Assembly: GCA_033763315.1 (NCBI GenBank)
Contig: JANRKS010000028.1
Location: 154,240-218,239 of the forward strand
Direction of reading: 5' to 3'
DNA length: 64,000 nt
Source of the DNA: Deltaproteobacteria bacterium
GTDB taxonomy: Bacteria; Myxococcota_A; Polyangia; Fen-1088
Shown here: positions 12,504-27,057 of the stretch, in pieces
How positions within the stretch are numbered: the first letter of the stretch is position 1
How the letters are laid out: every line of letters starts with the position of its first letter
Notes under the pieces: model-generated
What the model saw: the letters and a program-made list of their open reading frames with translations, nothing else
Database searches by the model: none
Told to the model about the DNA's origin: nothing
Position numbers and translations under genes: made by a program

Positions 12504-13837
12504 GGCGCCACATCTCCAAGCATGCGCACCGATTGAGCGCTTCGCAGGCGACGTTGCGGATCCCACTTGCGGCGCACCTCTTCAAAGGCGGGCAAACGGG
12601 GCTCCATGGCCCGAAAATCTTCGGCGGTGGTGAAGTTGTCTTTCGTCAAATACATGCGACCGCCCTTTTCGATCACAAACTTGTTGAGCGCCGCCACCAC
12701 TGTGGCTGTGTTGCTTCGGATCGGAAGATCCACGGCGATCGACGTGCCCGGCATGGGGAACGACAGCAACCCTCGCCCCTGCGCGCCGCAGTCCTTGATC
12801 ACGCACAGCGGAGAGGCCAAGCCGAAGCCTGTCAGCAACTCAAGAAATTGCCTTGGCGCTTGCAGGCCCGCGTGTTCCGGCAACACGCACTGGTATTGCG
12901 TGAAGCCCTTCTTACCGTAGCCGCGGTTCCAATGATGAATCGCGTCCAATGGATAAAAGAACGAATCGGGATGGACCACGCCGCGCTTCATTTTGCGGCC
13001 GTGAACACGGTAATAAAGCTCGTTGAAGGCACGCGCGGTCAAGCGGTTCAACGCCCACGAAGGCAAGTTGAACGGCAACGACAATTTGTGCTTCTCGGGC
13101 GGCGGCGCTTTAGGAGCCTCTGCGGGCGTGGCCCAACGGCCCATCATCAAGATGCCGCGGCCCATGAGCTTTCCTCGTGAAACGCAATCGATCCAGCCCA
13201 TCGTCATTGGCCACGCGGGCCCCGCTTCTTTGAGGCCGCGCAAGAAATCGTCGATGCTTGGGACTTGGCGGCTTTCCATCCAGATCCACGGCGAAGCGAT
13301 GCGTTCCATGCGGAACTCCACCTCAAGAATGTGACCTGTCAGGCCCATCCCTCCGATGGTGGCGTCAAACAAGTCGGTGTTCATGGACGGCGAGCATTCA
13401 ACAACGTCGTTGTTGGCCAAGCGCAACTTCATCCAGGTCACGTGCTCGCCAAAGCAGCCATTGCGGTGGTGGTTCTTACCGTGAACGTCCGAGGCCACCA
13501 TGCCCCCCACGGTCACAAATTTTGTCCCGGGTGTCACGGGCGTGAACCAACCTTGGCGCAAGAACAGCCGGTTGAGTTCGTCCAGGCAAAAGCCGGCTTC
13601 GACTTTCATCAAACCGCTGACGGTATCGAACGCAAGCACGCGATCGGCCAACGGCGTTTGCACCACTTTATCGGTTGGGGCCGCCGGCAAAGACGAATCG
13701 CCATAGGAGCGACCTAAGCCGCGGCTTAAAGCGGCGTTGACTGTATCGCGCGCGAGGTCGTCCGAAGCCACGAGCTGGCCCACACCAACCATGCGCCCCC
13801 AACTTTCGGCAGCCAGGCCCAAGGTTTTGTCAGCCAC
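12500..13837 (-). CDS. FAD-binding oxidoreductase, DprE1-like
   Basis: RGLGRSYGD, VTPGTKFVTVGGMVASDVHGKNHH, ATIGGMGLTG, QYQ, LSFPMPG, GGRMYLTKD. Confidence 0.88.
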   Translation of the reverse strand: MADKTLGLAAESWGRMVGVGQLVASDDLARDTVNAALSRGLGRSYGDSSLPAAPTDKVVQTPLADRVLAFDTVSGLMKVEAGFCLDELNRLFLRQGWFTPVTPGTKFVTVGGMVASDVHGKNHHRNGCFGEHVTWMKLRLANNDVVECSPSMNTDLFDATIGGMGLTGHILEVEFRMERIASPWIWMESRQVPSIDDFLRGLKEAGPAWPMTMGWIDCVSRGKLMGRGILMMGRWATPAEAPKAPPPEKHKLSLPFNLPSWALNRLTARAFNELYYRVHGRKMKRGVVHPDSFFYPLDAIHHWNRGYGKKGFTQYQCVLPEHAGLQAPRQFLELLTGFGLASPLCVIKDCGAQGRGLLSFPMPGTSIAVDLPIRSNTATVVAALNKFVIEKGGRMYLTKDNFTTAEDFRAMEPRLPAFEEVRRKWDPQRRLRSAQSVRMLGDVAP

Positions 13838-14480
13838 GCGGTTTGCCCCCAGGCTTGGTGTTGGTTTGATCTAACTGCTCGTAAGCGTCGGTGATCGCGC
13901 GAAACAGTCGCTCGAGCAGCGTGCGAAACATGCCCAGATTCTTGCCGTAGAAGCGATCTGGGTGCAGTTCCTTCGACGCCACAAAGTAGGCTTTCTTGAG
14001 CGCCTTGTGATCGGCCGTGGGCGACACGCCCAAGAGTTCGTGGGGCGCCAGCTTCGGCAGCAGGCGCGCCGCCCGTATGAGCCGCGTCTTTAACGTGATC
14101 TCGAGATCCGGGCCGTCGATCAAGTCGGCGGGATCGACCGCGGAGCCATCATCCAAGCGAGCCAACACGGTTTGCCCCGGCGGCACGGGCGTTTTGGGTT
14201 TTGGTGACGCGGGCGCCTGTGCGGGCGGTGGCGAGCGAGGTGTTTCACCTGGGTTGTAGATGAGCCCCGCTTGCTTAAGCTTTCGCAGGATTTCAATTGT
14301 GCCAGCCGCGCCGAGGCCAGTGACATTGCAGATCTCAGCGTAGCTCGTGTGACCATCCACGCGAGACATCACAAACCCTTCGGTGGGTGATAGCTTTACC
14401 GCGCGCAGGTCAGCCTTGGGGTTCAACAACGGCTTGGTTTTCTTGGGGCCTAAGCCCTCGATGTCATCCGAAGCGCTCAC
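13830..14480 (-). CDS. J-domain-containing protein
   Basis: C-terminal ELLGV...KKAY...ELHPDRFY J-domain; N-terminal LSPTEGFVMSRVDG domain. The GTG start overlaps the argF stop (GTGA). Confidence 0.8.
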   Translation of the reverse strand: MSASDDIEGLGPKKTKPLLNPKADLRAVKLSPTEGFVMSRVDGHTSYAEICNVTGLGAAGTIEILRKLKQAGLIYNPGETPRSPPPAQAPASPKPKTPVPPGQTVLARLDDGSAVDPADLIDGPDLEITLKTRLIRAARLLPKLAPHELLGVSPTADHKALKKAYFVASKELHPDRFYGKNLGMFRTLLERLFRAITDAYEQLDQTNTKPGGKPRG

Positions 14481-15442
14481 GGGCGGGGTAGTAAAAATTC
14501 CAGCAACGCTTTTTGCGCGTGCAAACGGTTCTCGGCCTGGCGCCACACATGGCTTTGCGGGCCTTCGAACACTTCTTCAGTGATCTCTTCGCCCCTGTGT
14601 GCGGGCAAGCAGTGCAACACCATCGCGTTGGGTGACGCCAGCTTCATCAAAGCGCCGTCCAAACAATAACCGGCAAAATCTTTCAGGCGCTGCTCTGTTT
14701 CCGCCTCTTGCCCCATCGACGTGAACACGTCAGTGGAGATCACATCGCGGTCCGCCACCGCTTCTTTCGGATCGGAGACCACGGTGATTTTTGCAGCGGC
14801 GTTGGCGCGCGCCTTCGCCAAGATGGCGGCATCTGGTTGATAGTTCGGCGGGCAAGCCAGCATAAGATCAAGACCAAGCAAGCCTGCCGCTTCGATCCAG
14901 CTGTTGGCCATGTTGTTGCCATCGCCAAGCCACGCATATTTGCGCGCGCTTAAGATAGCGGCCGCATCCAACGAGCCCAGGCCCACGCCGCGGGCAGCGC
15001 CAAAGTGCCCAAGCACGGTCTGCAGATCCGCCAACAGCTGGCAGGGGTGCAGAAGATCGGTGAGGCCATTGATCACAGGCACCGTCGCATACTGGGCCAA
15101 CTCTTGCGCCACCTCATGACCGAACGTGCGAATCATGATCGCGTGGCAATAACCTGAAAGCACCCGCGCCGTATCTTTGACGGGCTCACCACGGCCCAAT
15201 TGCGAACCGTCACGGCCCAACACCACCGCGAAGCCCCCCAGTTCGGCGACGCCAACCTCGAAACTCACGCGCGTGCGTGTGCTGGCTTTTTCAAAAACAA
15301 GCGCCACCACGGAGCCAGGGCGCGAAGCCGCAGCCGTACGCGTGCTGCGCAAAAACCGCAGCTCTTCAGCGCGCAGGAGCAACCCGCACAGCTCATTGGC
15401 GGTGACGTCGTCAAACCCTAAGAAGTCGCGTTTAGGCGCCAT
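14477..15442 (-). CDS. argF: Ornithine carbamoyltransferase
   Basis: FEKASTRTRVSFE, HPCQ, GDGNNMA, SMGQE and HCLPAHRG motifs. Confidence 0.96.
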   Translation of the reverse strand: MAPKRDFLGFDDVTANELCGLLLRAEELRFLRSTRTAAASRPGSVVALVFEKASTRTRVSFEVGVAELGGFAVVLGRDGSQLGRGEPVKDTARVLSGYCHAIMIRTFGHEVAQELAQYATVPVINGLTDLLHPCQLLADLQTVLGHFGAARGVGLGSLDAAAILSARKYAWLGDGNNMANSWIEAAGLLGLDLMLACPPNYQPDAAILAKARANAAAKITVVSDPKEAVADRDVISTDVFTSMGQEAETEQRLKDFAGYCLDGALMKLASPNAMVLHCLPAHRGEEITEEVFEGPQSHVWRQAENRLHAQKALLEFLLPRP

Positions 15443-15455
15443 GAATTTTCGATCC

Positions 15456-16664
15456 TTATGAAGCGGCGCTGAGGACAGCGTTCAAAATGCCCACAGCTTC
15501 ATCAATTTCAGCTTTGGTGACCAGCAACGCGGGCACGAAGCGAACCACCTTGCCGCCCGCCACGCTTAACAACAGGCCACGTTCGCGTGCTTGCGCCACG
15601 ATGGGGGCCGCGTCGCCCGCCATCACCAAACCCTGCAACAAACCCCGCCCGCGTGCGGCGGTGGTTTTCGGATAATGCGCAGCGGCCAAGCGTGCCAGTT
15701 CACCATTTAGGTAGGCGCCCATCGCTTGCACGTTCTGCAGCAGCCCCAAGTCATCAATCGCGTGTTGCACATAAAGCGCGGCCGCGCTGGCCAGCGGGTT
15801 GCCACCAAACGTTGAGGCATGCACGCCAGGCTCGAACGCACGCGACACCTCAGGTGACGCCAACATCGCCCCCATCGGCACGCCGCCGGCGATGCCTTTG
15901 GCCAGCGTGATCACGTCAGGCACCATGTTCTCTTGCTCGAACGCATAAAAGGTGCCCGTACGGCCCACGCCTGTTTGCACTTCGTCAAAGATCAACAACG
16001 CACCGGCCGCGTCGCAGGCCTGCCGCAACTGCAACAAATAACCGGGCGGCGGGACCAAGATGCCGCCTTCAGCCGCGATGGGCTCCACGATCACGGCGCA
16101 CGTGTTCGGCCCCAGGTGTACCTTCACTGCGTCCAAGTTGCCGTAGGGCACGAACGTGACGCCGGGCACGAGAGGGCCAAAGCCTTCCCGGTATTTGGTT
16201 TGTCCCGTCACCGACAACGCGCCCATCGTGCGGCCGTGGAAACTGCCTTCAAACGCGATAATCTCGGTCCGGTTCGGCTGCTGCTTGCAAGTCACCTGGT
16301 ACCGACGCGCGATCTTGAGGGCCGCCTCGTTGGCCTCTGCGCCCGAGTTACAGAAAAACGCACGGCCTGCAAAAGCACGCTTGGCCAAGGCCTCGGCGAA
16401 CAACACCTGCGTCTCGACGTAATAAAGGTTCGAGGTGTGGATGAGGCGCGAGGCTTGGCTGGCAATGGCGTCGGCCAAGCCCCTGTGGCCGTGGCCCAAG
16501 GCACACACGGCAATGCCCGCAGTCATATCTAAATAGCGACGGCCTTCGGTGTCCCACAAAACACAGCCTTCACCACGGCTCATCACGATGGGTGATTGCC
16601 GGTAGTTTTGCAGGAGCAGCTTTTCCGCTGCGCCGATGAGCTCTTGCGCGTGGGTGTTCGACAT
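15456..16664 (-). CDS. argD: Acetylornithine aminotransferase
   Basis: NSGAEANEAA, SFHGRT, DEVQTGVGRTG, PLP lysine in LAKG, HASTFGGNP; adjacent to argF. Confidence 0.93.
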   Translation of the reverse strand: MSNTHAQELIGAAEKLLLQNYRQSPIVMSRGEGCVLWDTEGRRYLDMTAGIAVCALGHGHRGLADAIASQASRLIHTSNLYYVETQVLFAEALAKRAFAGRAFFCNSGAEANEAALKIARRYQVTCKQQPNRTEIIAFEGSFHGRTMGALSVTGQTKYREGFGPLVPGVTFVPYGNLDAVKVHLGPNTCAVIVEPIAAEGGILVPPPGYLLQLRQACDAAGALLIFDEVQTGVGRTGTFYAFEQENMVPDVITLAKGIAGGVPMGAMLASPEVSRAFEPGVHASTFGGNPLASAAALYVQHAIDDLGLLQNVQAMGAYLNGELARLAAAHYPKTTAARGRGLLQGLVMAGDAAPIVAQARERGLLLSVAGGKVVRFVPALLVTKAEIDEAVGILNAVLSAAS

Positions 16665-16786
16665 TGGAGCCCAGCAAAATACCAGAATCCGCGGCCACCG
16701 AAAGCCAACGACCACGCAACAGCTGGTTTAATGTGACCGCAAAGGTATGACCGGTGTTGTGCAGAGCCGGTGCTAGACTTGGGCAA

Positions 16787-17383
16787 GTGGCCGCGACGCT
16801 TAGCCGCAAAGAGGTGGAAGCGCTGTTCCGCACCTATGGACCATTGGTGCGGCGGCGGGCGCGCAGCATCTTAGGCAATGATTCCGAAGCCGACGACGCC
16901 ACCTCGGAAGTGTTCGTCAAGGTCTTGTTGCGCCTCGATGATTTTCGGGGTGAGAGCCAGCCATCCACGTGGCTTTACCGCATCACCACCAATTTGTGCC
17001 TAAACCGCATCCGGGACGAAAAGCGGCACCGCGCCCGTCTCGAAGAGCTGGGGGAGGCCAGGCAAGCCCACATCGCCGCTGAGCGGCCGGCCACCGGTGG
17101 GCCCGAAGGCCGCCTGGCGCTGCAGGTGTTGTTGCAGACGATCCCAGCCGATCTGGCAGAGGTCGCGGTGTACTACCATGTGGACGGCATGGAGCAGGAG
17201 GAGATTGCCGCTGTGATGGGCGTGGCGCGCCGAACCATAGGATATCGTTTGGAAAGATTCCGCGAGGAGGCTCGCAAACACCTTGGCATGGACGCGCTTG
17301 GTGATGGCTTCAAACAATCTATATCTTCGGTTGATCCCGTTGCCGTGGATCCACCGCTTGGGGGTCCAAAGCCCCAGGAATAG
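16787..17383 (+). CDS. ECF RNA polymerase sigma factor
   Basis: Region 2 ADDATSEVF...STWLYRITTNLCLN; region 4 GMEQEEIAAVMGVARRTI. Start approximate (GTG 16787). Confidence 0.9.
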   Translation: MAATLSRKEVEALFRTYGPLVRRRARSILGNDSEADDATSEVFVKVLLRLDDFRGESQPSTWLYRITTNLCLNRIRDEKRHRARLEELGEARQAHIAAERPATGGPEGRLALQVLLQTIPADLAEVAVYYHVDGMEQEEIAAVMGVARRTIGYRLERFREEARKHLGMDALGDGFKQSISSVDPVAVDPPLGGPKPQE

Positions 17384-17390
17384 CTGGCAC

Positions 17391-18197
17391 ATGCAAACGA
17401 AGAACGAAGCCGCAGGGGGGGCACGTCGGGTGGGGCGCGAATGCCTTTCGGACTTGCAGCTCGACCAGATGGAGCTGGGAGAGTTGGATGGCGTGACGAA
17501 CGATCGCGCCCGCTTGCACCTGGCCCAGTGTGGCGTGTGCAAAGAAGCGTGGGAAGCCCTGGTGGCCGACCGACGCGCGTTCGCCGAAGCGGTGGACGTG
17601 CCTCGTGTGGCGGCGCGCATCGTGGCCACAGCTTATCCTTCGGGTGGTCGGGTAAAACGCTGGTTGCGCGGTCTGGCTTTGCCCGCAGCTTTGGCCGCCG
17701 CGGCGGCTTCGGCGCTTGTGTTGTTGGCGCAGCCGCTCAAACTCGCACCCACAGAACGCATCAAAGGTGGAGCAGGCGCGGTGACCTTGGCCACATACGT
17801 AAAGTACGCGGGTCATGAACAACCCGGCAGCCTTTATATGGGGGAGCCACTGAGGGTGGGCGACCGTGTGCAGTTTCGGATCAGCACGGCCGCGCCGGGA
17901 CATCTGGCGATCCTTTCGATTGATGGCCGGGGCGATGTGTCCGTGTTCTACCCGTCAGGTTCCACCACGGCGTCGGTGGGTGCTGGCAAGGATCAGCCGC
18001 TTGGCAACGCTGTGGAGCTCGACGAAAGCGAAGGCACGGAGACGGTTGTGGCGTTGTTGTGTGAAGCCGAACGTCCGCTGGCCGATCTCGTCACAGCGGC
18101 GCGCAAGGCGGCCACACAAGGCGCGGTGCCGGCGCCCTTGCACACAGGTTGCGTGGAAACACGCACAACACTGACGAAAGCGACGCCGTCGCGCTGA
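17391..18197 (+). CDS. Zinc-finger (ZAS) anti-sigma factor with TM helix and DUF4384-like extracytoplasmic domain
   Basis: HLAQCGVC (HxxxCxxC), a hydrophobic segment, then LRVGDRVQF...HLAILSIDGRGDVSVFYP...VELD...GTE. Starts 7 bp after the ECF gene. Confidence 0.8.
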   Translation: MQTKNEAAGGARRVGRECLSDLQLDQMELGELDGVTNDRARLHLAQCGVCKEAWEALVADRRAFAEAVDVPRVAARIVATAYPSGGRVKRWLRGLALPAALAAAAASALVLLAQPLKLAPTERIKGGAGAVTLATYVKYAGHEQPGSLYMGEPLRVGDRVQFRISTAAPGHLAILSIDGRGDVSVFYPSGSTTASVGAGKDQPLGNAVELDESEGTETVVALLCEAERPLADLVTAARKAATQGAVPAPLHTGCVETRTTLTKATPSR

Positions 18198-18213
18198 CCG
18201 CGGCCGCGCTAAC

Positions 18214-19824
18214 ATGAAGGCTGTGGTTGCTCGCCTGACCCGTCGCTGCCTTGTTCTGCTCGCGTTCGCGCTGGCGTGGGGCAGGATGCAACCCGCTCAT
18301 GGGGCCGTGCAACGTTACGCTCTGTTGATCGGCGTTAACGAAGGCCACGCACAAGATCCCCGTCTGCAGTTCGCTGAATCCGACGTAGACAATGTGGCGC
18401 AAACGCTGGAAGCGGTGGGCGGCTTTCGCAGCGATCGCATCGTGCGGCTGAAAAATGCGACGGCTGAACAAACGCGCAACGCTGTCGTCGACTTGAACCT
18501 CTTGATCCAGCGCGACGTCAACGCAGGCACCGAAGCGGTGTTGTTCGTGTATTTTTCGGGCCACGGCGCCGGGGGCGAGCTGCACATGCGCGGCACCACG
18601 CTGGCCACGGAAGAGTTATCGAAGCTCGTGAAGCTTTCGGCGGCGAAGCTCAAGCTTTTGATGCTGGACGCGTGCCGCGCGGGGTCGCTCACGCGGGTCA
18701 AAGGCGGGCGGCAAGTGGCCCCATTTCAGATCGGCATGGCGGAGCAGCTGCGCAACGAAGGCTTCGCCATCATCACGTCTTCAGCAGCGGGTGAAGACGC
18801 CCAAGAATCCGATACGTTGCAGTCATCGGTGTTCACGCATCACTTCTTGGGCGGCCTGCGCGGCTTGGCCGATGCCAACCGGGACGGCCTTGTGACCTTG
18901 GGTGAAGCTTATGGCTACGCCTATGCGCAATCGTTGCGCAGCTCGATGACAACGGTCGTTGGTTCGCAACACGCCACGTTCGATTACGACTTGCGCGGCC
19001 GCGCCGATCCCGTGTTGGCGAATCTCAATGCCGCGCACGCTGAGGCCGAGCTGGTGTTGCGCGATCCGGGGGATTACTTGATCGCGCCCGCGTCGGGCCC
19101 TGGCGCCTTGGTGGAGGCACACGCCACCGAAAACAATACGCGTTTGCGCTTACCGGCGGGAACCTATGGCGTTCGCATGCGTACGCCTCGCCGCATCTTG
19201 CAAACGGATGTGGCGCTGACCGCAGCCCACAGCACATGGCTCACCGCGGACGAGATGACCGCATTGCCGCCGGCTTTGGCCGTTCGCAAAGGCGAAGTGG
19301 CGGCCACGCTCGTGCATGGCCCTTCGCTGGCTGGATCGATGCACGGGCCGGTGGCCAATGGTTTTTCCTCGACGGTGGGGGCTCAACTCGGATGGGCGTT
19401 CGAGTTTCCCAGCATAACGGTGATGCCACGCTTCGGTTTGGGACGCGCCGAGCCCGTTCGTTTGCCGGAGCAGATCCTATCGCATGAGCTCACCGAGTTG
19501 AGCCTCGATGTGGCCGCGCTTTATGTGTTTGATCTGGCGGGCGTGTCCGTGGCGCCGCTGGCGGCCCTCGGCTCGGCTATGTTCTCGCAAACGATCGAAC
19601 GCCTGGATGGCAGCACCACCGCGCGGCCGTGGGCGTTGATGACCAGCGTCGGTGCCTGGGCCAACTGGCCGCTGGCCAAAGGCTTTTCGCTTGAAACCAG
19701 CGCTGAATTGGCGGCGTTCTTCGTACGTCGGCAAAGCGAAAATAACGCCGCCGGCGTAACGTCAACGCCGCAGTCCGGCTCGGCCACGTATCGCGTGTCC
19801 GTGGGTTTAGGCTACCGGTACTAA
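18214..19824 (+). CDS. Exported caspase-family peptidase (C14) with C-terminal outer-membrane beta-barrel-like domain
   Basis: Signal peptide ending AHG; YALLIGVN; FSGHG (His 18562-18564); LDACR (Cys 18673-18675); AQES...SVFTHH; amphipathic beta-strands ending VGLGYRY. Confidence 0.88.
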   Translation: MKAVVARLTRRCLVLLAFALAWGRMQPAHGAVQRYALLIGVNEGHAQDPRLQFAESDVDNVAQTLEAVGGFRSDRIVRLKNATAEQTRNAVVDLNLLIQRDVNAGTEAVLFVYFSGHGAGGELHMRGTTLATEELSKLVKLSAAKLKLLMLDACRAGSLTRVKGGRQVAPFQIGMAEQLRNEGFAIITSSAAGEDAQESDTLQSSVFTHHFLGGLRGLADANRDGLVTLGEAYGYAYAQSLRSSMTTVVGSQHATFDYDLRGRADPVLANLNAAHAEAELVLRDPGDYLIAPASGPGALVEAHATENNTRLRLPAGTYGVRMRTPRRILQTDVALTAAHSTWLTADEMTALPPALAVRKGEVAATLVHGPSLAGSMHGPVANGFSSTVGAQLGWAFEFPSITVMPRFGLGRAEPVRLPEQILSHELTELSLDVAALYVFDLAGVSVAPLAALGSAMFSQTIERLDGSTTARPWALMTSVGAWANWPLAKGFSLETSAELAAFFVRRQSENNAAGVTSTPQSGSATYRVSVGLGYRY

Positions 19825-19856: not shown

Positions 19857-21134
<1,278 letters not shown>

Positions 21135-21201: not shown

Positions 21202-24200
21202 ATGGCCTCTGTTTGGCAAGCGTTAGGGCGTTTCTTTCGAGCGATCTTTGGGCAATGGCAACCACCACCGTGGGCCGTGTTTCTGGGCAACAAAACCCGG
21301 CAAGGCGGACGGTGGGCGACGCAACACAAGCGCGCTTCTGCGGTTTCATTGCTGCTGTTGATCGGCCTCGGTGCGGGTGGCTTCTTCGGCTATCGCGCTT
21401 GGAAGAGCCGTCCGCAACCCGAGCTTGTGCAAGTGTCGCTCAACCCGCCCGGCCTCACGGTGTTGCAAGAACATCTGCAGCCCCAGCCCTTGACGGTTGA
21501 GTTCGAAAGATCCGTCGCGCCATTGGCCGCGGTCGATAAAGTTCTGAAGGCCGGCGTGGCCCTTTCACCACGCGTGCCGGGCACGTGGAAGTGGATCTCG
21601 GATCGCCAGCTCGCGTTTACGCCAAAAACCGATTGGCCCGTGGGGCAAGAAATCGCGGTCACCTTTGACAAGAAGGGCTTCGTCGCTCCGCACATCAAGC
21701 TCAAAGAATACCAACTGACGTTCAAGACGGCGCCCTTCGAGGTGCAGCTTGAACAAAGTGAGTTCTACCAAGATCCTGCCAACCCCTCATTGAAGAAGGC
21801 TGTGGCGACCTTTGCTTTCAGTCACGCCGTAAACACAGACACCTTTGCTCAGAACCTCAAGCTCACGTTCGAACCCTCGAACAAGGAAGAAGCTGCGTTC
21901 GCACCCGCCTTTCACATCACATACGACAAGCTAAAGGGCAAAGCGTTCGTGCACTCGGATCCGTTGCCGGTGCCCCAGAAGGACGCGACCGTGGTGTTGA
22001 CGCTCAAACCAGGCACACGTGCGGCGGCCGGGGGGCCTGGCAAAGACACAGAGGTGGTGGGCCGCGTGGCAGTGCCCGGCCTCTACAACTTCTTTCGCAT
22101 CGCAAACGTCTACACGCAGGTGGTGGACAACCCGCGCATGGAGCCAGAACAGATCTTGTTCTTCGACACTTCGACCGGCGTGGCCAACAAAGAACTGACC
22201 GCGAACATCGAGGTGTGGACCTTGCCCGTCTACCACCCCACCGAACAAACGACACCCGAGAGCCGCAGCTCGCCTTACCGCTGGAGCAGCCCCGAAATGA
22301 TCTCGCCCGCCATCTTAAAGGGCGGCCAGAAGTTGAAGCTGCAAGCCTTGCCTACGGTGCGGGAGTACGATGTGCAGCACACTTACCGGCACGAAGCGCC
22401 GATCGGTCGCTTTCTTTATGTGCAAGTGAAGAAGGGCGTCAAAGCGTTCGGCGGCTACCTGTTGGGCGACACGCAGACCTTCATCGTGGAGGTGCCGCCC
22501 TTTCCTCGCCAGTTGAAGATCATGCACTCAGGCGCGCTGTTGGCCAGCAGCGGTGATCGCAAAGTCAGCGTTTTCACGCGCGACGTGCCGCAAATCAAAT
22601 TGCAGGTCGCACGCATTTTGCCGTCACAGATCCAGCATCTGGTGGCGAGGAGCCATGGCTCGTTCGCGCAACCGTCATTCTCGTGGGATTTCGATCTCGA
22701 GAACATGGCGCAGTTTCAAGATGAGACGCGCACGTTGGCGCAAACCCCAGGAAAACCTGTGTATGAGACGTTGGATCTGACGCCCTATTTGCCCAAAGAG
22801 GGTCCGCGCCGCGGGCTGTTTCACATCAAAGTGCAAAGCTGGAAAGACAGCTACGCGCTGGGAGAATCAGATGAGCGCTTCATCTTGCTTTCGGATCTGG
22901 GCGTGTTCGTCAAGCGCACCGTATCGGGTACGCGAAGTGTGTTTGTGCAGAGCATCGCGGCGGGCACGCCTGTGGCGGACGCGCAGGTGGAAGTGCTCGG
23001 CAAAAACGGCATGGTGGTGGCGCGCGCGCGCACGGGGGCCGATGGCAAAGCCGAACTTGCGAACCTCGAATCGCTGCGCGCGGAAAAGTCACCGGTGCTT
23101 GTGCTCGTGAACGCCGGCAACGACACTTCATTTTTGCCGTGGGACCGCCGCGATCGCGAGATGGACGTGTCGCGCTTTGACGTGGGCGGCGTGGCTGAAA
23201 GCGAAGAGGCCGGCAAATTGGCCGCGTACGGTTTCTCAGATCGCACGCTTTACCGCCCGCAAGAAACGTTTCACGTGGGCTTCATCGTGCGCAGCCAAGA
23301 CTGGGCGGCCAACTACAACGGCTTGCCGTTGGTGGCCACAATCACCGATCCACGCGGCATGGAGGTCAAAAGTGAACCGGTGACGTTGGACGCCTCGGGC
23401 TTCGCGGCGATTGATTACACCACAAGGTACACGGCACCCACGGGCAGCTATGCGGTAAACCTTTATCTGGTGAAAAAGGGCGTGCCCAGCGATCTGCTGG
23501 GCTCCACCACGGTGCAGGTACGCGAATTCTTGCCGGATCGAATGACCATCAAGGTTGAATTGACGAAACAGAACACCGGCGGCTGGACCACCGCACAGGA
23601 TCTGGATGCCAAGGTAACGCTGACAAATCTTTACGGCACGCCCGCATCGAACAAACGCGTGGTGACGCGGATTTCCCTTACACCTGGGATTCCAAGTGTG
23701 CGCGGCATGCCGGGCTTTCGGTTCTACGATCCATTGAAGCCAAACGATCCGGTGCAAGAGACACTGGCCGCGGAACACACGAACGATGACGGAACTGCCG
23801 AGATTAAACTGAACCTGCAGCGCTTTGCGCCCGCCACGTACCGCTTGAGCGTGATGGCCGAAGGCTTTGAGGGCGAAGGCGGACGCAGCGTGGCCGCCGA
23901 GGCGACAACGTTCGTGTCGCCTTTGCCTTACATGATTGGCTACAAAACCGAAGGCGACCTTTCCTACTTGCACATGGGCTCGGCGCAAGTCGTGCTGCTC
24001 GCAGCGGCCTCGCCCGAAGGCGAGCGGATGAGCGTGGGTGGCCTGACGCAAGTGCTCCTGGAACGAACGTACGTCTCTGCTTTGGTGAAGCAAGCGAACG
24101 GCACATACCGCTATGAATCCGTGGGCAAGGATGTGGAACGCTCGCGCAAGCCCTTGCAGTTCAGCAAGGCTGACACGGCTGTGACCTTGCCCACCGACAA

Positions 24201-27057
24201 ACCGGGCACATTCTTTCTCACGGTGCAAAACGCCGAAGGGCTGGAGCTGCAGCGCGTGCCGTTCACCGTGGCCGGCCAAGCCAATCTGGCACGAACAATG
24301 GATCGCATCACCGAACTGCAGCTTTCGCTGGCCAATGCCAGCGTAGACCCAGGCGCGCCTTTGGAAGTGCAGATCAAAGCGCCGTACGCGGGCTCGGGGC
24401 TCATCACGATCGAACGCGATCGCGTGTATGCACACAAATGGTTTCACACAGACACCACGGGCACCATTGAGAAGATCGACGTGCCCGCGGGGTTGGAAGC
24501 CGGTGGGTATGTTTCAGTGGCGATGATTCGGGATGCGGCCTCTGCCGATGTGTTCGTAAGCCCGTTGTCTTATGGAATCGTTCCGTTTTCAATTAGCCGC
24601 GATCAGCGGCGCATCAACGTCAAAGTGGACGCGCCCGCGTTAGCGAAGCCAGGCGTGGTCATGAAGCTCAACGTCACGGCCGACAAGCCTGGGCGCGCCG
24701 TGGTGTTCGCCGTGGATGAAGGCATCTTGCGCGTGGCCAAACATCCCAACCCGGATCCATTGGGTCACTTTCTGCAAAAGCGGCAACTGGGCGTTTCCAC
24801 AACTCAGATCCTAGATCTCATTCTGCCCGAGCATCGCTTATTGATGCAGGCGCTTGCCCCTGGTGGTGGCGACGAAGCGGATGCCAGCGCTTTGGGTGCC
24901 AATTTAAACCCTTTCAAACGCAAGCAAGACATCCCCGCGGTGTATTGGTCGGGCCTGGTGGATGTGGGGCCGCAAGCCAAAGAACTAAGCTTCTTGGTGC
25001 CGGATAGTTTCGCGGGCACGTTGCGCGTGATGGCCGTGGCCGCGAATGCCAGCGCCGTGGGTGCCTATGTGGGGCAAAGCTTGGTGCGCGGCGATTTTGT
25101 GATCAGCCCCAACGTACCTACGTTCGTCGCACCCGGCGATATGTTCGACGTGCCAGTGACGGTGGCCAACAACGTGGAGGGTTCAGGCAAAGCCGCCAAC
25201 GTGACGTTAACGCTGCAAACCACGCCGCATGTTGAAGTTGTGGGCAGCGCCAAAGCCTCCCTCACCGTGGGCGAATTGCATGAAGCGGCCACCACTTTCA
25301 AGCTGCGCGCCAAAGACACACTGGGCTCGGCAGGGCTGACGTGGAAGGCCACGCTTGGCAAAGCGTTTGGGCAACGCCGGGTGGATGTCAGCGTGCGGCC
25401 CGCGGCGCCCTTCCTATCGACTTTGAATGTTGGGTATCTGAAAAACGGCAGCAAGAAGGTGCCCGTGCAGCGGCAGCTTTATGGTGCCTTTCGCACGTTG
25501 CAGACGGGGCTATCACCCGTGCCCACCACGCTGTCTTCGGGGTTGGCACGCTACTTGGAGAAATTCCCGCACGGATGCACCGAGCAGATCAGCAGCCAAG
25601 CGGTGCCAGCGCTTGTGATGGCAAGCCCGGGGGGCGGCAGTGCACCGCCCGTGGACGCCGCCAACGCGGTATCACGCTTCACCGAGCTGGTGGCCACACG
25701 GCAGAACGATGAAGGCGGCTTCGGCTTGTGGGTCGCAACCCCGAACGCGGCACCGCTGGCCAGCGTTTACACAATGCTTGTGTTAACCGAGGCCAAAGAT
25801 CGTGGCTTTCCCGTCGCTGCGCGCGTGATGGACAACGGCCTGCGGTACTTGGAAACCGTGGCAGACGCCACACCTGATGATCTTGCGGGCGCGCGCCTGC
25901 GTACGATGGCGATCTATGTACTGACCCGCAACGCGGTGGTGACCACACGGTACGCGTCGGCGGCACAAAAACACATGGAGGCCAATTACGCCAAGGCGTG
26001 GCGTGACGATCCCGCGGCAGCCTATTTGGCGGGCGCATACGCCCTTTTGCAAGATCAGGCCTTGGCTGAAAAGCTGAGCCAACCTCTGGCGCTGGGACGC
26101 GATCGGCAACCCGATTACGCCGCTTACTACGACAACATGGCGCACGACGCGCAGGTGCTCTACGTCTTGGCCAAGCACTTCGCACCGCAAGCGGCGAAGC
26201 TGCCCTCCAGCGCGCTTGAGGGGATGTTGCGTATGATTGAGAAAGGCGCCTACAACACCTTCTCGTCGGCGTTCTCCATTTTGGCGTTGGATAGTTACGC
26301 TCGCGCAGGCGCGGCCGCCAGTGGTGGCCAACGCAGTGTCGCGCAATGGTTGGCGGGCAAGGCGGAGCCGCTCGCGTTGCCGCAAACCGCGGGCGCGATG
26401 ATCGATTTTTCGCCCAAGGCAAGCGCGTTGGAGTTTAACGTGACGGGTGATTTCGGTGCCTACTTCGTCGTCAGCCAACAAGGCTTTGATCAGGTGCTGC
26501 CCACCAAGCCGCGCGCGGAGAAAGTGGAAGTGTTCCGCGAGTACATCGGCAAGGACAACGCGACGCTCACACAGGTGGCCGCGGGTGATGAGATCCGCGT
26601 GCGTTTGCGCGCGCGCAGCCTCGACGGTTACATTCCCAATGCGGCCATCATCGATCTGCTGCCCGGAGGCTTCGAGGTCGTGATCCAAAGCGCGTCGTCC
26701 GGCACAGCTGACAACGACAACACGGGTGACCAGGGCGAAGCCGAAGGTGATGCTGAAGGCAACGACGAAAGCAACGGCGGCGACGAGGCACCACCTGAAA
26801 CGCCCGCCAGCGGATTCGGGGTGCCCATCGCCATGCCCGGATCTGATCTGCCCCTGGCCTACGGCGACGTGCGCGAGGATCGAGTTGTGTTGTACGCCGA
26901 TCTTGGCCCTGACGCGCACACGTTCATCTACACGATCAAGGCCACGAACACTGGCGACTATGTGGTGCCGCCCATCTTGGCCGAATCGCTTTACGATCGC
27001 GCGGTGCGCGCCGTGGGCGTCCCTGGCAAGATGACCGTGCAAGCGCCCAAACAATAA
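21202..27057 (+). CDS. Bacterial alpha-2-macroglobulin
   Basis: SDRTLYRPQE, AVDEGIL, thioester GCTEQ, IIDLLPGGFE, DVREDRV; followed by pbpC. Confidence 0.93.
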   Translation: MASVWQALGRFFRAIFGQWQPPPWAVFLGNKTRQGGRWATQHKRASAVSLLLLIGLGAGGFFGYRAWKSRPQPELVQVSLNPPGLTVLQEHLQPQPLTVEFERSVAPLAAVDKVLKAGVALSPRVPGTWKWISDRQLAFTPKTDWPVGQEIAVTFDKKGFVAPHIKLKEYQLTFKTAPFEVQLEQSEFYQDPANPSLKKAVATFAFSHAVNTDTFAQNLKLTFEPSNKEEAAFAPAFHITYDKLKGKAFVHSDPLPVPQKDATVVLTLKPGTRAAAGGPGKDTEVVGRVAVPGLYNFFRIANVYTQVVDNPRMEPEQILFFDTSTGVANKELTANIEVWTLPVYHPTEQTTPESRSSPYRWSSPEMISPAILKGGQKLKLQALPTVREYDVQHTYRHEAPIGRFLYVQVKKGVKAFGGYLLGDTQTFIVEVPPFPRQLKIMHSGALLASSGDRKVSVFTRDVPQIKLQVARILPSQIQHLVARSHGSFAQPSFSWDFDLENMAQFQDETRTLAQTPGKPVYETLDLTPYLPKEGPRRGLFHIKVQSWKDSYALGESDERFILLSDLGVFVKRTVSGTRSVFVQSIAAGTPVADAQVEVLGKNGMVVARARTGADGKAELANLESLRAEKSPVLVLVNAGNDTSFLPWDRRDREMDVSRFDVGGVAESEEAGKLAAYGFSDRTLYRPQETFHVGFIVRSQDWAANYNGLPLVATITDPRGMEVKSEPVTLDASGFAAIDYTTRYTAPTGSYAVNLYLVKKGVPSDLLGSTTVQVREFLPDRMTIKVELTKQNTGGWTTAQDLDAKVTLTNLYGTPASNKRVVTRISLTPGIPSVRGMPGFRFYDPLKPNDPVQETLAAEHTNDDGTAEIKLNLQRFAPATYRLSVMAEGFEGEGGRSVAAEATTFVSPLPYMIGYKTEGDLSYLHMGSAQVVLLAAASPEGERMSVGGLTQVLLERTYVSALVKQANGTYRYESVGKDVERSRKPLQFSKADTAVTLPTDKPGTFFLTVQNAEGLELQRVPFTVAGQANLARTMDRITELQLSLANASVDPGAPLEVQIKAPYAGSGLITIERDRVYAHKWFHTDTTGTIEKIDVPAGLEAGGYVSVAMIRDAASADVFVSPLSYGIVPFSISRDQRRINVKVDAPALAKPGVVMKLNVTADKPGRAVVFAVDEGILRVAKHPNPDPLGHFLQKRQLGVSTTQILDLILPEHRLLMQALAPGGGDEADASALGANLNPFKRKQDIPAVYWSGLVDVGPQAKELSFLVPDSFAGTLRVMAVAANASAVGAYVGQSLVRGDFVISPNVPTFVAPGDMFDVPVTVANNVEGSGKAANVTLTLQTTPHVEVVGSAKASLTVGELHEAATTFKLRAKDTLGSAGLTWKATLGKAFGQRRVDVSVRPAAPFLSTLNVGYLKNGSKKVPVQRQLYGAFRTLQTGLSPVPTTLSSGLARYLEKFPHGCTEQISSQAVPALVMASPGGGSAPPVDAANAVSRFTELVATRQNDEGGFGLWVATPNAAPLASVYTMLVLTEAKDRGFPVAARVMDNGLRYLETVADATPDDLAGARLRTMAIYVLTRNAVVTTRYASAAQKHMEANYAKAWRDDPAAAYLAGAYALLQDQALAEKLSQPLALGRDRQPDYAAYYDNMAHDAQVLYVLAKHFAPQAAKLPSSALEGMLRMIEKGAYNTFSSAFSILALDSYARAGAAASGGQRSVAQWLAGKAEPLALPQTAGAMIDFSPKASALEFNVTGDFGAYFVVSQQGFDQVLPTKPRAEKVEVFREYIGKDNATLTQVAAGDEIRVRLRARSLDGYIPNAAIIDLLPGGFEVVIQSASSGTADNDNTGDQGEAEGDAEGNDESNGGDEAPPETPASGFGVPIAMPGSDLPLAYGDVREDRVVLYADLGPDAHTFIYTIKATNTGDYVVPPILAESLYDRAVRAVGVPGKMTVQAPKQ

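Follow-up and report, generated by a model that had tools for sequence, protein, structure and literature searches.

A 64,000-nucleotide stretch from the genome of a Deltaproteobacteria bacterium (Fen-1088; contig JANRKS010000028.1, positions 154,240 to 218,239; this whole stretch is hereafter called the window) carries three plus-strand open reading frames (ORFs), lying head to tail at window positions 16787 to 19824, that encode a sigma factor of the extracytoplasmic function (ECF) type, a single-pass anti-sigma factor, and an exported caspase-like protease of the C14 family. Judged from comparisons of related sequences, the operon is best read as encoding a proteolytic envelope switch, and we lean toward the view that the caspase serves as the dedicated site-1 protease of its own anti-sigma factor. 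The two proteins have the core R-x-K-G in common; its conservation appears to support this reading strongly, and the matching of Lys or Arg between partners seems to support it suggestively.

Under the proposed mechanism, the caspase would bind basic P1 sites and would recognize R-x-K-G, with the cut falling between Lys and Gly, in two places: its own L2-like loop behind the catalytic Cys, for maturation or self-occupation, and the linker of the cognate anti-sigma factor. With a cut after K125, the periplasmic DUF4384 domain would be lost and a stub some 12 residues long would stay behind, after which a site-2 metalloprotease would cleave the membrane helix and release the sigma factor. Candidates for the site-2 (M50) protease are represented by eight PF02163 matches in the genome (best E value, 8.9e-61), which are nonspecific in that all 14 control genomes match too.

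A motif common to protease and anti-sigma factor

The arrangement of the three genes is widely kept. Scoring of 8,000 candidates gave 332 relatives of the caspase. Species-representative genomes were scanned as well; the 511 relatives obtained were reduced to the best 80 loci, nearly all labeled Myxococcota, with orthologous triads in Archangium gephyra (L038), Sorangium (L021 and L040), and Polyangium (L015, L017, and L028). In phmmer searches with the window proteins, the sigma factor, anti-sigma factor, and caspase follow one another in this order on one strand at 70 of these 80 loci; among the other 10, four end with the contig at the anti-sigma gene (L029, L050, L058, and L079), two have an anti-sigma factor found by profile only (L076 and L080), L065 is divergent, the sigma gene of L068 lies far off, and two are without partners (L049 and L052). 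More broadly, the caspase profile has matches in 95 of the 251 genomes sampled from the phylum, and the anti-sigma profile collects 47,030, 9,328, and 2,672 cluster representatives at E values of ≤1e-3, ≤1e-10, and ≤1e-30, respectively.

The first-pass annotation of this DNA had placed RVKGG seven residues after the catalytic Cys of the caspase and RIKGG just outside the transmembrane (TM) helix of the anti-sigma factor. Both placements are correct: RVKGG (18694 to 18708) spans residues 161 to 165, with R161 at C154+7 and K163 at C154+9, and the location of RIKGG follows from the DNA and from the AlphaFold2 (AF2) model. Across 11,851 six-frame ORFs of at least 150 aa from this genome, R[IV]KGG occurs 13 times, or 3.5e-6 per residue, and because it is so rare genome-wide, a pair of copies in two neighboring genes is not expected by chance; a chance origin of the motif was rejected on this ground.

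Within the anti-sigma family, the motif stands out from the sequence around it. Among 73 aligned sequences, R123 is kept in 64, K125 in 71, and G126 in 72, at 3.5 to 4.2 bits versus 0.9 to 1.7 bits in the surrounding linker; counted over 77 rows, RxKG is present in 63 and [KR]-G in 75. In an independent set of the 150 best family representatives (149 examined, one long protein having been skipped), R.KG lies within 50 residues past the TM segment in 144, and the remaining five read x.KG. The candidate P1 residue lies 8 to 29 residues (median, 14) past the hydrophobic segment. In the caspases, the equivalent stretch is conserved as well: across 30 sequences chosen from 120 listed and 33 to 100% identical to the caspase in the window, T160, V162, K163, G164, and G165 never vary, and at least 90% keep R161. 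At the loci of the Lys type defined below, Lys and Gly occupy C+9 and C+10 in 74 of 74 caspases, with Arg at C+7 in 70 and a second Gly in 64. The expected co-conservation across homologous operons was therefore found, and of the R-[IV]-K-G-G motif first ascribed to both proteins, R-x-K-G stands; the Ile/Val does not, the x position of the anti-sigma factors taking many residues, and neither does the second Gly, present in just 24 of 77 anti-sigma rows.

Both copies lie in predicted disordered segments (predicted local distance difference test [pLDDT] score, <50) that adjoin confident domains in the AF2 models. In the anti-sigma factor, RIKGG sits at the junction of linker and domain, at the end of disordered residues 114 to 123 and just before a strand at residues 131 to 138, and the alignments present it as an island of conservation within a disordered juxtamembrane linker. 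In the caspase, a loop at residues 157 to 181, between the strand bearing C154 and the next strand, has a pLDDT of <50 and holds T160-R-V-K-G-G165; in the model it is the positional equivalent of the caspase intersubunit linker. Caspase-3 and caspase-7 are cut for maturation in their intersubunit loop, about 12 residues after the Cys. A profile-profile comparison of the caspase and anti-sigma families (hhalign) returned a single local alignment, which sets TRVKGG on RIKGG and is not significant (Prob, 0.35%; E value, 0.17).

The same conservation, and the Lys/Arg matching described below, would serve if the caspase bound both motifs and did not cut its partner, since matching needs recognition, not cleavage. 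The anti-sigma segment would then be a nonproductive or inhibitory ligand, a pseudo-substrate or tether that holds or silences the caspase, or the caspase would be autoinhibited by its own loop; the sigma factor would be freed by another site-1 protease, or the signal would run from anti-sigma factor to caspase. We regard this as unlikely. It draws some support from DUF4384, which is recurrently fused to cysteine peptidases (of families C14 and C1, in the Atlas), like a regulatory or pro-domain-like module, and from a weak Foldseek row that pairs the periplasmic domain with an intracellular proteinase inhibitor (3isy; E value, 1.5e-2). Yet a near-invariant [KR]-[G/A/S] in a flexible, membrane-adjacent linker resembles a scissile bond, a stub with the median length given above suits hand-over to a site-2 protease, and the neighborhood has no further conserved protease gene.

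Lysine- and arginine-type partners

The family contains two forms of the motif. In the K-type, caspases with T-R-x-K-G accompany anti-sigma factors with R-x-K-[GA]; in the R-type, which forms a second deep clade, the caspase has x-x-R-G-[GP], its Arg again at C+9, and the anti-sigma factor has [AW]-R-G. The R-type clade was enlarged by searches of 251 genomes and of metagenomes (22-row alignment A3; 374 relatives, with 80 loci kept).

Pairs were compared by a fixed rule that sets the caspase residue at C+9 against the dipeptides found in the 50 residues after the anti-sigma TM segment. Among 107 pairs, caspases with Lys face a linker with K[GA] only in 36 cases, with both K[GA] and R[GS] in 40, with R[GS] only in 3, and with neither in 2 (K[GA] in 76 of 81), whereas for caspases with Arg the corresponding counts are 0, 5, 18, and 2 (R[GS] in 23 of 25); the 107th pair, L115, falls outside these classes, with a Gly at C+9 through a two-residue insertion and an R[GS]-only linker. 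The metagenome set comprises 51 pairs, 24 of 80 loci being without a usable anti-sigma ORF and 5 duplicates being left out. There, caspases with Arg face K[GA] only in 0 cases, both in 9, R[GS] only in 39, and neither in 2 (R[GS] in 48 of 50), and the single caspase with Lys (L200) faces K[GA] only, all other classes being empty. An Arg caspase with a K[GA]-only linker was thus found in 0 of 25 and 0 of 50 pairs. Reading the profile-aligned columns instead gives, for caspase and anti-sigma factor, K/K in 78, K/R in 2, K opposite a gap in 1, R/R in 13, and R/K in 1; the lone R/K row comes from misaligned L092, which has QARG in its linker, and eleven R-type rows are misaligned in that alignment.

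Trees of the caspase domain place several changes outside the deep split. L076, with Arg in both partners, stands beside L051, with Lys in both; one clade unites L059 and L079 (Arg in both) with L063 and L078 (caspase Lys, anti-sigma Arg); and L200, with Lys in both, is sister to L196, with Arg in both (support, 0.91), inside an R-type clade (0.968). At P1, Lys and Arg are exchanged jointly in the two partners, never oppositely, in at least four lineages (L076, L200, the clade of L059 and L079, and the deep split).

The genome of the organism, 7.6 Mb in size, holds 10 paralogous triads (two in C28 and one each in C11, C7, C24, C9, C20, C2, C22, and C5), each with an ECF-like sigma factor; seven are K-type (Lys-Gly) and three R-type (Arg-Gly), each matched internally. 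The coexistence of both types, matched pair by pair, points to recognition by the cognate enzyme and not by a common outside protease. Were a third protease, periplasmic, unlinked, and specific for basic sites, to process both the caspase zymogen and the anti-sigma factor at the common motif, the exposed and basic character of both sites would suit it, and proteases acting in trans on anti-sigma factors are the rule in known systems; still, one outside enzyme leaves the pairwise matching unexplained and no such gene is conserved nearby, and we consider this very improbable.

The same genome also contains, at C6:182198-183793, a caspase of the family (TGVKGG, with the barrel) that has no sigma or anti-sigma gene and is preceded by a lipoprotein-like gene. 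At C24:7607-8422, an anti-sigma factor with the linker RTKG stands with a sigma factor, without an adjacent caspase, and the pair is followed by a lipoprotein gene. The two may be the halves of a split pair.

Several observations weigh against the caspase as the dedicated site-1 protease, the C24 locus among them. The partners are discordant at L063 and L078, as given above, and at L201/L202, where the caspase has R-A-R-D and the anti-sigma factor F-R-S-K-G. A phylogeny-aware sign test on an IQ-TREE phylogeny (83 rows with both states known, motif columns masked) gave a p of 0.5 and is underpowered, with 3 independent pairs on supported branches and 5 on all branches; in it, the caspase state changes five times and the anti-sigma state four, the partner differing the same way in 1.8 cases, the other way in 0.0, and not at all in 1.2. 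K-type pairs do not covary at P3 (identical in 64 of 75 pairs; shuffled mean, 62.5), P2 (5 of 75; 7.0), or P2' (10 of 75; 8.5), nor did the S1 pocket covary, no other caspase column tracking the four small K/R switches. In R-type partners, R-G or R-S is all that remains of the shared element, a dipeptide of low information content. Finally, in an intact envelope the outer membrane tether predicted for the protease (see below) may be far from the candidate cut site, which lies about 12 residues away from the inner membrane. Of the covariation that the first-pass annotation had proposed to test, then, the P1 match across deep clades and small switches is present, the sign test has too few independent events to reach significance, and P3, P2, and P2' show none; its proposal of a dedicated site-1 protease retains the conserved gene order, the motif, the disordered loops, and the P1 matching on its side, against an underpowered test and a second Gly that is not shared.

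Several of these same points would agree with the caspase being output only, the ECF pair controlling a cotranscribed envelope protease with other substrates and the two motifs being kept for unrelated structural reasons (a turn at the DUF4384 domain boundary and a caspase-family loop). ECF operons often carry effectors, the RTKG anti-sigma factor and the TGVKGG caspase each occur without the other, P3, P2, and P2' do not covary, and neither the sign test nor the profile-profile match reaches significance. We nevertheless think this quite unlikely: P1 switches jointly in those lineages and never oppositely, an Arg caspase is never met by a K-only linker, both motifs lie in low-confidence loops and not in folded cores, and the sole local alignment of the caspase and anti-sigma families falls precisely on the motif.

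Architecture of the three proteins and their surroundings

The intergenic gaps are 7 nt between the sigma and anti-sigma genes (17384 to 17390) and 16 nt between the anti-sigma and caspase genes (18198 to 18213). The first-pass description of the operon, an ECF sigma factor, a zinc-binding anti-sigma (ZAS) protein with a TM helix and DUF4384, and an exported C14 peptidase with an intact His-Cys dyad, agrees with the ORFs, the Pfam matches, the HLAQCGVC motif, and the invariant catalytic residues (Table 1).

Table 1. Features of the operon, in window coordinates
Feature	Position	Strand	Basis or remark
ECF sigma factor	16787..17383	+	198 aa from GTG 16787; in-frame GTG 16754 gives 209 aa (ORF 16754..17383; either start possible)
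Single-pass anti-sigma factor, 268 aa	17391..18197	+	ORF 17283..18197, likely ATG 17391
ZAS-type motif H43-x3-C47-x2-C50 (HLAQCGVC)	17517..17540	+	Cytoplasmic anti-sigma domain
TM helix, residues 88-113 (hydrophobic core ~94-113)	17652..17729	+	AF2 helix and hydrophobic window
R123-I-K125-G126-G127, candidate site-1 site (K125-G126 bond)	17757..17771	+	Read from DNA
Periplasmic Ig-like beta-sandwich with DUF4384 match	17781..18179	+	Pfam and AF2 (residues 131-263, pLDDT >90)
Exported C14 caspase-like protease, 536 aa	18214..19824	+	Pfam Peptidase_C14
N-terminal signal peptide, ~residues 1-30 (predicted)	18214..18303	+	Hydrophobic helix 2-23 in model
Caspase domain, residues 32-270	18307..19023	+	H117 (18562-18564), C154 (18673-18675)
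T160-R-V-K163-G-G165, candidate autoprocessing or self-recognition site (K163-G164 bond)	18691..18708	+	Loop between Cys strand and next strand
Ig-like beta-sandwich, residues 277-351	19042..19266	+	AF2 strands
C-terminal 8-stranded beta-barrel, residues 366-535	19309..19818	+	AF2 strands; ends GLGYRY

The sigma factor matches Sigma70_r2 (68.8 bits; cutoff, 24), Sigma70_r4_2 (30.9 bits; cutoff, 25.7), Sigma70_ECF (above its cutoff), and the NCBIfam model sigma70-ECF TIGR02937 (86.3 bits; cutoff, 42.9). Only its sigma-2 and sigma-4 regions have profile matches, which, at a length of 198 to 209 aa, makes it an ECF (group 4) sigma factor.

The anti-sigma factor has the build of a ZAS transmembrane protein, with its H-x3-C-x2-C motif in an N-terminal domain (helices at residues 21 to 81) followed by one TM helix; binding of the sigma factor is predicted. 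H43, C47, and C50 are conserved in at least 90% of 64 sequences, and HxxxCxxC is present in 149 of the 150 family representatives. The AF2 model, built on a 64-row alignment, has a pLDDT of 85.7 and ends in a confident beta-sandwich, in which, over the same 64 sequences, C254 is invariant and C224 is kept in at least 90%. This periplasmic domain matches DUF4384 (PF14326; 31.8 bits; cutoff, 27), and its structural neighbors in the Atlas carry PF14326, similar-looking domains being present there in zf-HC2 proteins from Myxococcota, Fibrobacterota, Spirochaetota, and Acidobacteriota. The Atlas fusions of DUF4384 to C14 and C1 peptidases are also in keeping with the site-1 reading. Foldseek returned no PDB fold for it at an E value of ≤0.001, the best match being the Ig-like fold of RhoGDI (3.2e-3). 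A search among longer proteins found no fused anti-sigma-caspase relatives, which counts as weak evidence; the top match of the anti-sigma profile, P0121 (758 aa), contains five matched stretches and repeated DUF4384 and is a multidomain relative without a caspase fusion.

The protease scores 54.7 bits against Peptidase_C14 (PF00656; cutoff, 21.4) and stays below the threshold of the NCBIfam EACC1-associated caspase model (NF047832; 69.7 bits; cutoff, 140). The N termini of the 30 aligned homologues are variable and hydrophobic and end in Ala-rich sites, and the catalytic dyad, H117 (in SGHG) and C154 (in DACR), is invariant among them. The AF2 model, from a 30-row alignment, has a mean pLDDT of 81.8, with a short low-confidence linker between Ig-like sandwich and barrel. 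By VIA-align of this model the protease has the caspase-hemoglobinase fold: residues 29 to 273 superpose on procaspase-7 (1k88_B) with a Z score of 21.0 and a root mean square deviation of 2.8 Å over 211 aligned residues, other caspases match too, and Arabidopsis metacaspase 4 (AtMC4; 6w8r_A) gives a Z score of 20.3. The top Foldseek matches are MALT1 caspase-Ig3 chains (E value, 1.4e-8). The likeness to MALT1 paracaspase and type II metacaspases thus extends from the fold to the order of a caspase domain followed by an Ig-like domain; those enzymes, however, share 9 to 18% sequence identity with this one and have neither an outer membrane barrel nor a signal peptide. No significant homology was found between the Ig-like domain of the caspase and DUF4384 (hhalign).

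MALT1 and type II metacaspases have basic P1 specificity. In HMMER alignments, D57 of the caspase falls on the Asp of the metacaspase "CIND" segment, which we take to line the S1 pocket. Orthocaspases cleave after basic residues, as stated in the cited portion of PMC6426788, and this literature, the fold family, the alignment of D57, and the conserved [KR]-G motifs together suggest that the caspase prefers a basic P1 residue. As an observation of its own, R-type caspases carry a second near-invariant Arg-Gly pair (alignment A3, positions 378 to 379 of L093:2625-4349), located C-terminal to the caspase domain.

The C-terminal barrel resembles NspA (1p4t; E value, 3.9e-7), Ail (3qra), and the OmpA TM domain (1bxw) in Foldseek searches, and most of the 30 homologues end in an aromatic residue, the window protein ending in GYRY. 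By fold and C-terminal aromatic signature, this model represents a small eight-stranded outer membrane barrel, with membrane insertion predicted. Because eight-stranded barrels normally keep both ends in the periplasm, we take the protease to face the periplasm, with its barrel serving as the tether to the outer membrane. A role as a surface-exposed passenger was rejected, as an eight-stranded barrel should be too small for passenger export.

Around the triad, less is conserved. No conserved fourth gene was found downstream, the largest cluster having 2 members among 69 downstream genes. At 23 of 69 K-type loci, a gene for a secreted, Cys-rich protein without a Pfam match lies directly 5' of the sigma gene and on the same strand (e.g., L010:2679-3656 and L015:1727-2719); the window lacks this gene and has argD in divergent orientation upstream. 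The genes upstream of the triad (13830 to 16715, minus strand) encode a DnaJ-domain protein, an ornithine carbamoyltransferase, and an acetylornithine-type class III aminotransferase, the last of which also takes up a divergent upstream position at the most closely related orthologous loci (L001, L002, L004, and L006). Downstream, on the plus strand, positions 19857 to 21134 encode a secreted 425-aa protein with a CxxCH motif (CLRCH) that has no Pfam or NCBIfam match and no relatives in the 80 related loci, and positions 21202 to 27057 encode a bacterial alpha-2-macroglobulin of 1,951 aa (bMG3, MG2, bait-region, A2M, and bMG10 domains), a periplasmic protease trap that lies two genes downstream of the caspase operon in the window and is not found beside orthologous triads. 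A naive alignment of the 160 nt 5' of the sigma gene in the window and 9 close orthologues found no shared promoter, and a k-mer and two-block scan of 72 loci found no ECF-type promoter, [GT]GAAC-N15-19-[CG]GT[CAT] occurring in 3 of 72 loci versus 2 of 71 coding controls, so that no promoter or regulon can be named.

Relation to known systems and significance

The neighborhood of sigma factor and caspase has been recorded before. Of five metacaspases in Myxococcus xanthus, four are encoded in operons that also contain sigma factors, and this operon structure is reported too for Anaeromyxobacter, Haliangium, Sorangium, Ralstonia, and Fibrobacter (Asplund-Samuelsson et al. 2012, PMC3501461, in the portion cited). 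These sigma-70/metacaspase operons most likely represent the gene neighborhood of the triad described here; that account, in the same portion, records the neighborhood alone, with no anti-sigma factor, motif, topology, or mechanism.

Among described systems, DdvS/DdvA of M. xanthus, a member of the same phylum, comes closest: from the cited part of PMC11506125, it likewise combines an ECF sigma factor with a zinc-binding, single-pass anti-sigma factor, a periplasmic caspase-fold module, and a flexible linker to the TM segment, and caspase-like autoproteolysis has been proposed to precede cleavage by RseP in it. The two differ in that DdvA has a TPR-CHAT module fused to the anti-sigma factor and proposed, in that part of the source, to act in trans within a dimer, whereas here the protease is a separate C14 enzyme, encoded by its own gene, with an Ig-like domain and a barrel; the DUF4384 of the anti-sigma factor and the short motif common to enzyme loop and substrate further set the present system apart. 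The DdvA proposal (PMC11506125) and the 2012 operons (PMC3501461), as far as these portions go, give the idea of caspase control over an ECF anti-sigma factor more precedent than the first-pass annotation had supposed.

A second parallel is Craspase, in which, according to the cited portion of 10.1101/2022.08.17.504292, the caspase-clan Cas7-11/Csx29 (TPR-CHAT) cuts the linker of Csx30, a sigma-binding inhibitor that holds RpoE, and some Csx30 C-terminal domains belong to DUF4384. Craspase is cytoplasmic, RNA guided, and CRISPR linked, with a CHAT rather than a C14 protease and other cleavage motifs, whereas the present system belongs to the envelope and, by the ORF list of the window, its operon has no CRISPR genes. 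What was known already thus comprises the sigma/metacaspase neighborhood (2012) and proteolytic control of ECF anti-sigma factors by caspase folds (proposed for DdvA, and in Craspase); a search of full-text literature, with subscription papers and supplements outside its reach, found no description of the mechanism or of the shared motif for the triad.

The proposed two-step logic is that of SigmaE/RseA/DegS/RseP, and homologues of the site-2 protease are present in this genome. In the Escherichia coli system, a single-pass anti-sigma factor is cut at a periplasmic site 1 and then by a site-2 metalloprotease. The site-1 cut is made there by a PDZ serine protease whose gene lies elsewhere, whereas the candidate in the triad is a Cys protease whose gene belongs to the operon itself and which is predicted to be tethered to the outer membrane. 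A more elaborate form of the idea, which we hold to be improbable, is that the triads are insulated, self-matching protease channels: the maturation loop of each caspase would copy the cut site of its partner, giving Lys- and Arg-type channels without cross talk, and the barrel would separate protease from site, allowing firing only upon a change in envelope geometry or failed barrel insertion, as a caspase-based counterpart of the outer membrane protein stress sensor DegS.

To our knowledge, bacterial caspase homologues are common, and almost none has a defined physiological substrate. The operon partner offers this caspase a specific candidate substrate and a candidate bond, K125-G126. If the reading of the caspase as site-1 protease is correct, the cysteine proteases would join the classes of site-1 proteases in ECF signaling, the triad would be a split counterpart to the fused design of DdvA, and the paralogous triads would represent sets of naturally orthogonal protease, cut-site, and sigma factor modules.

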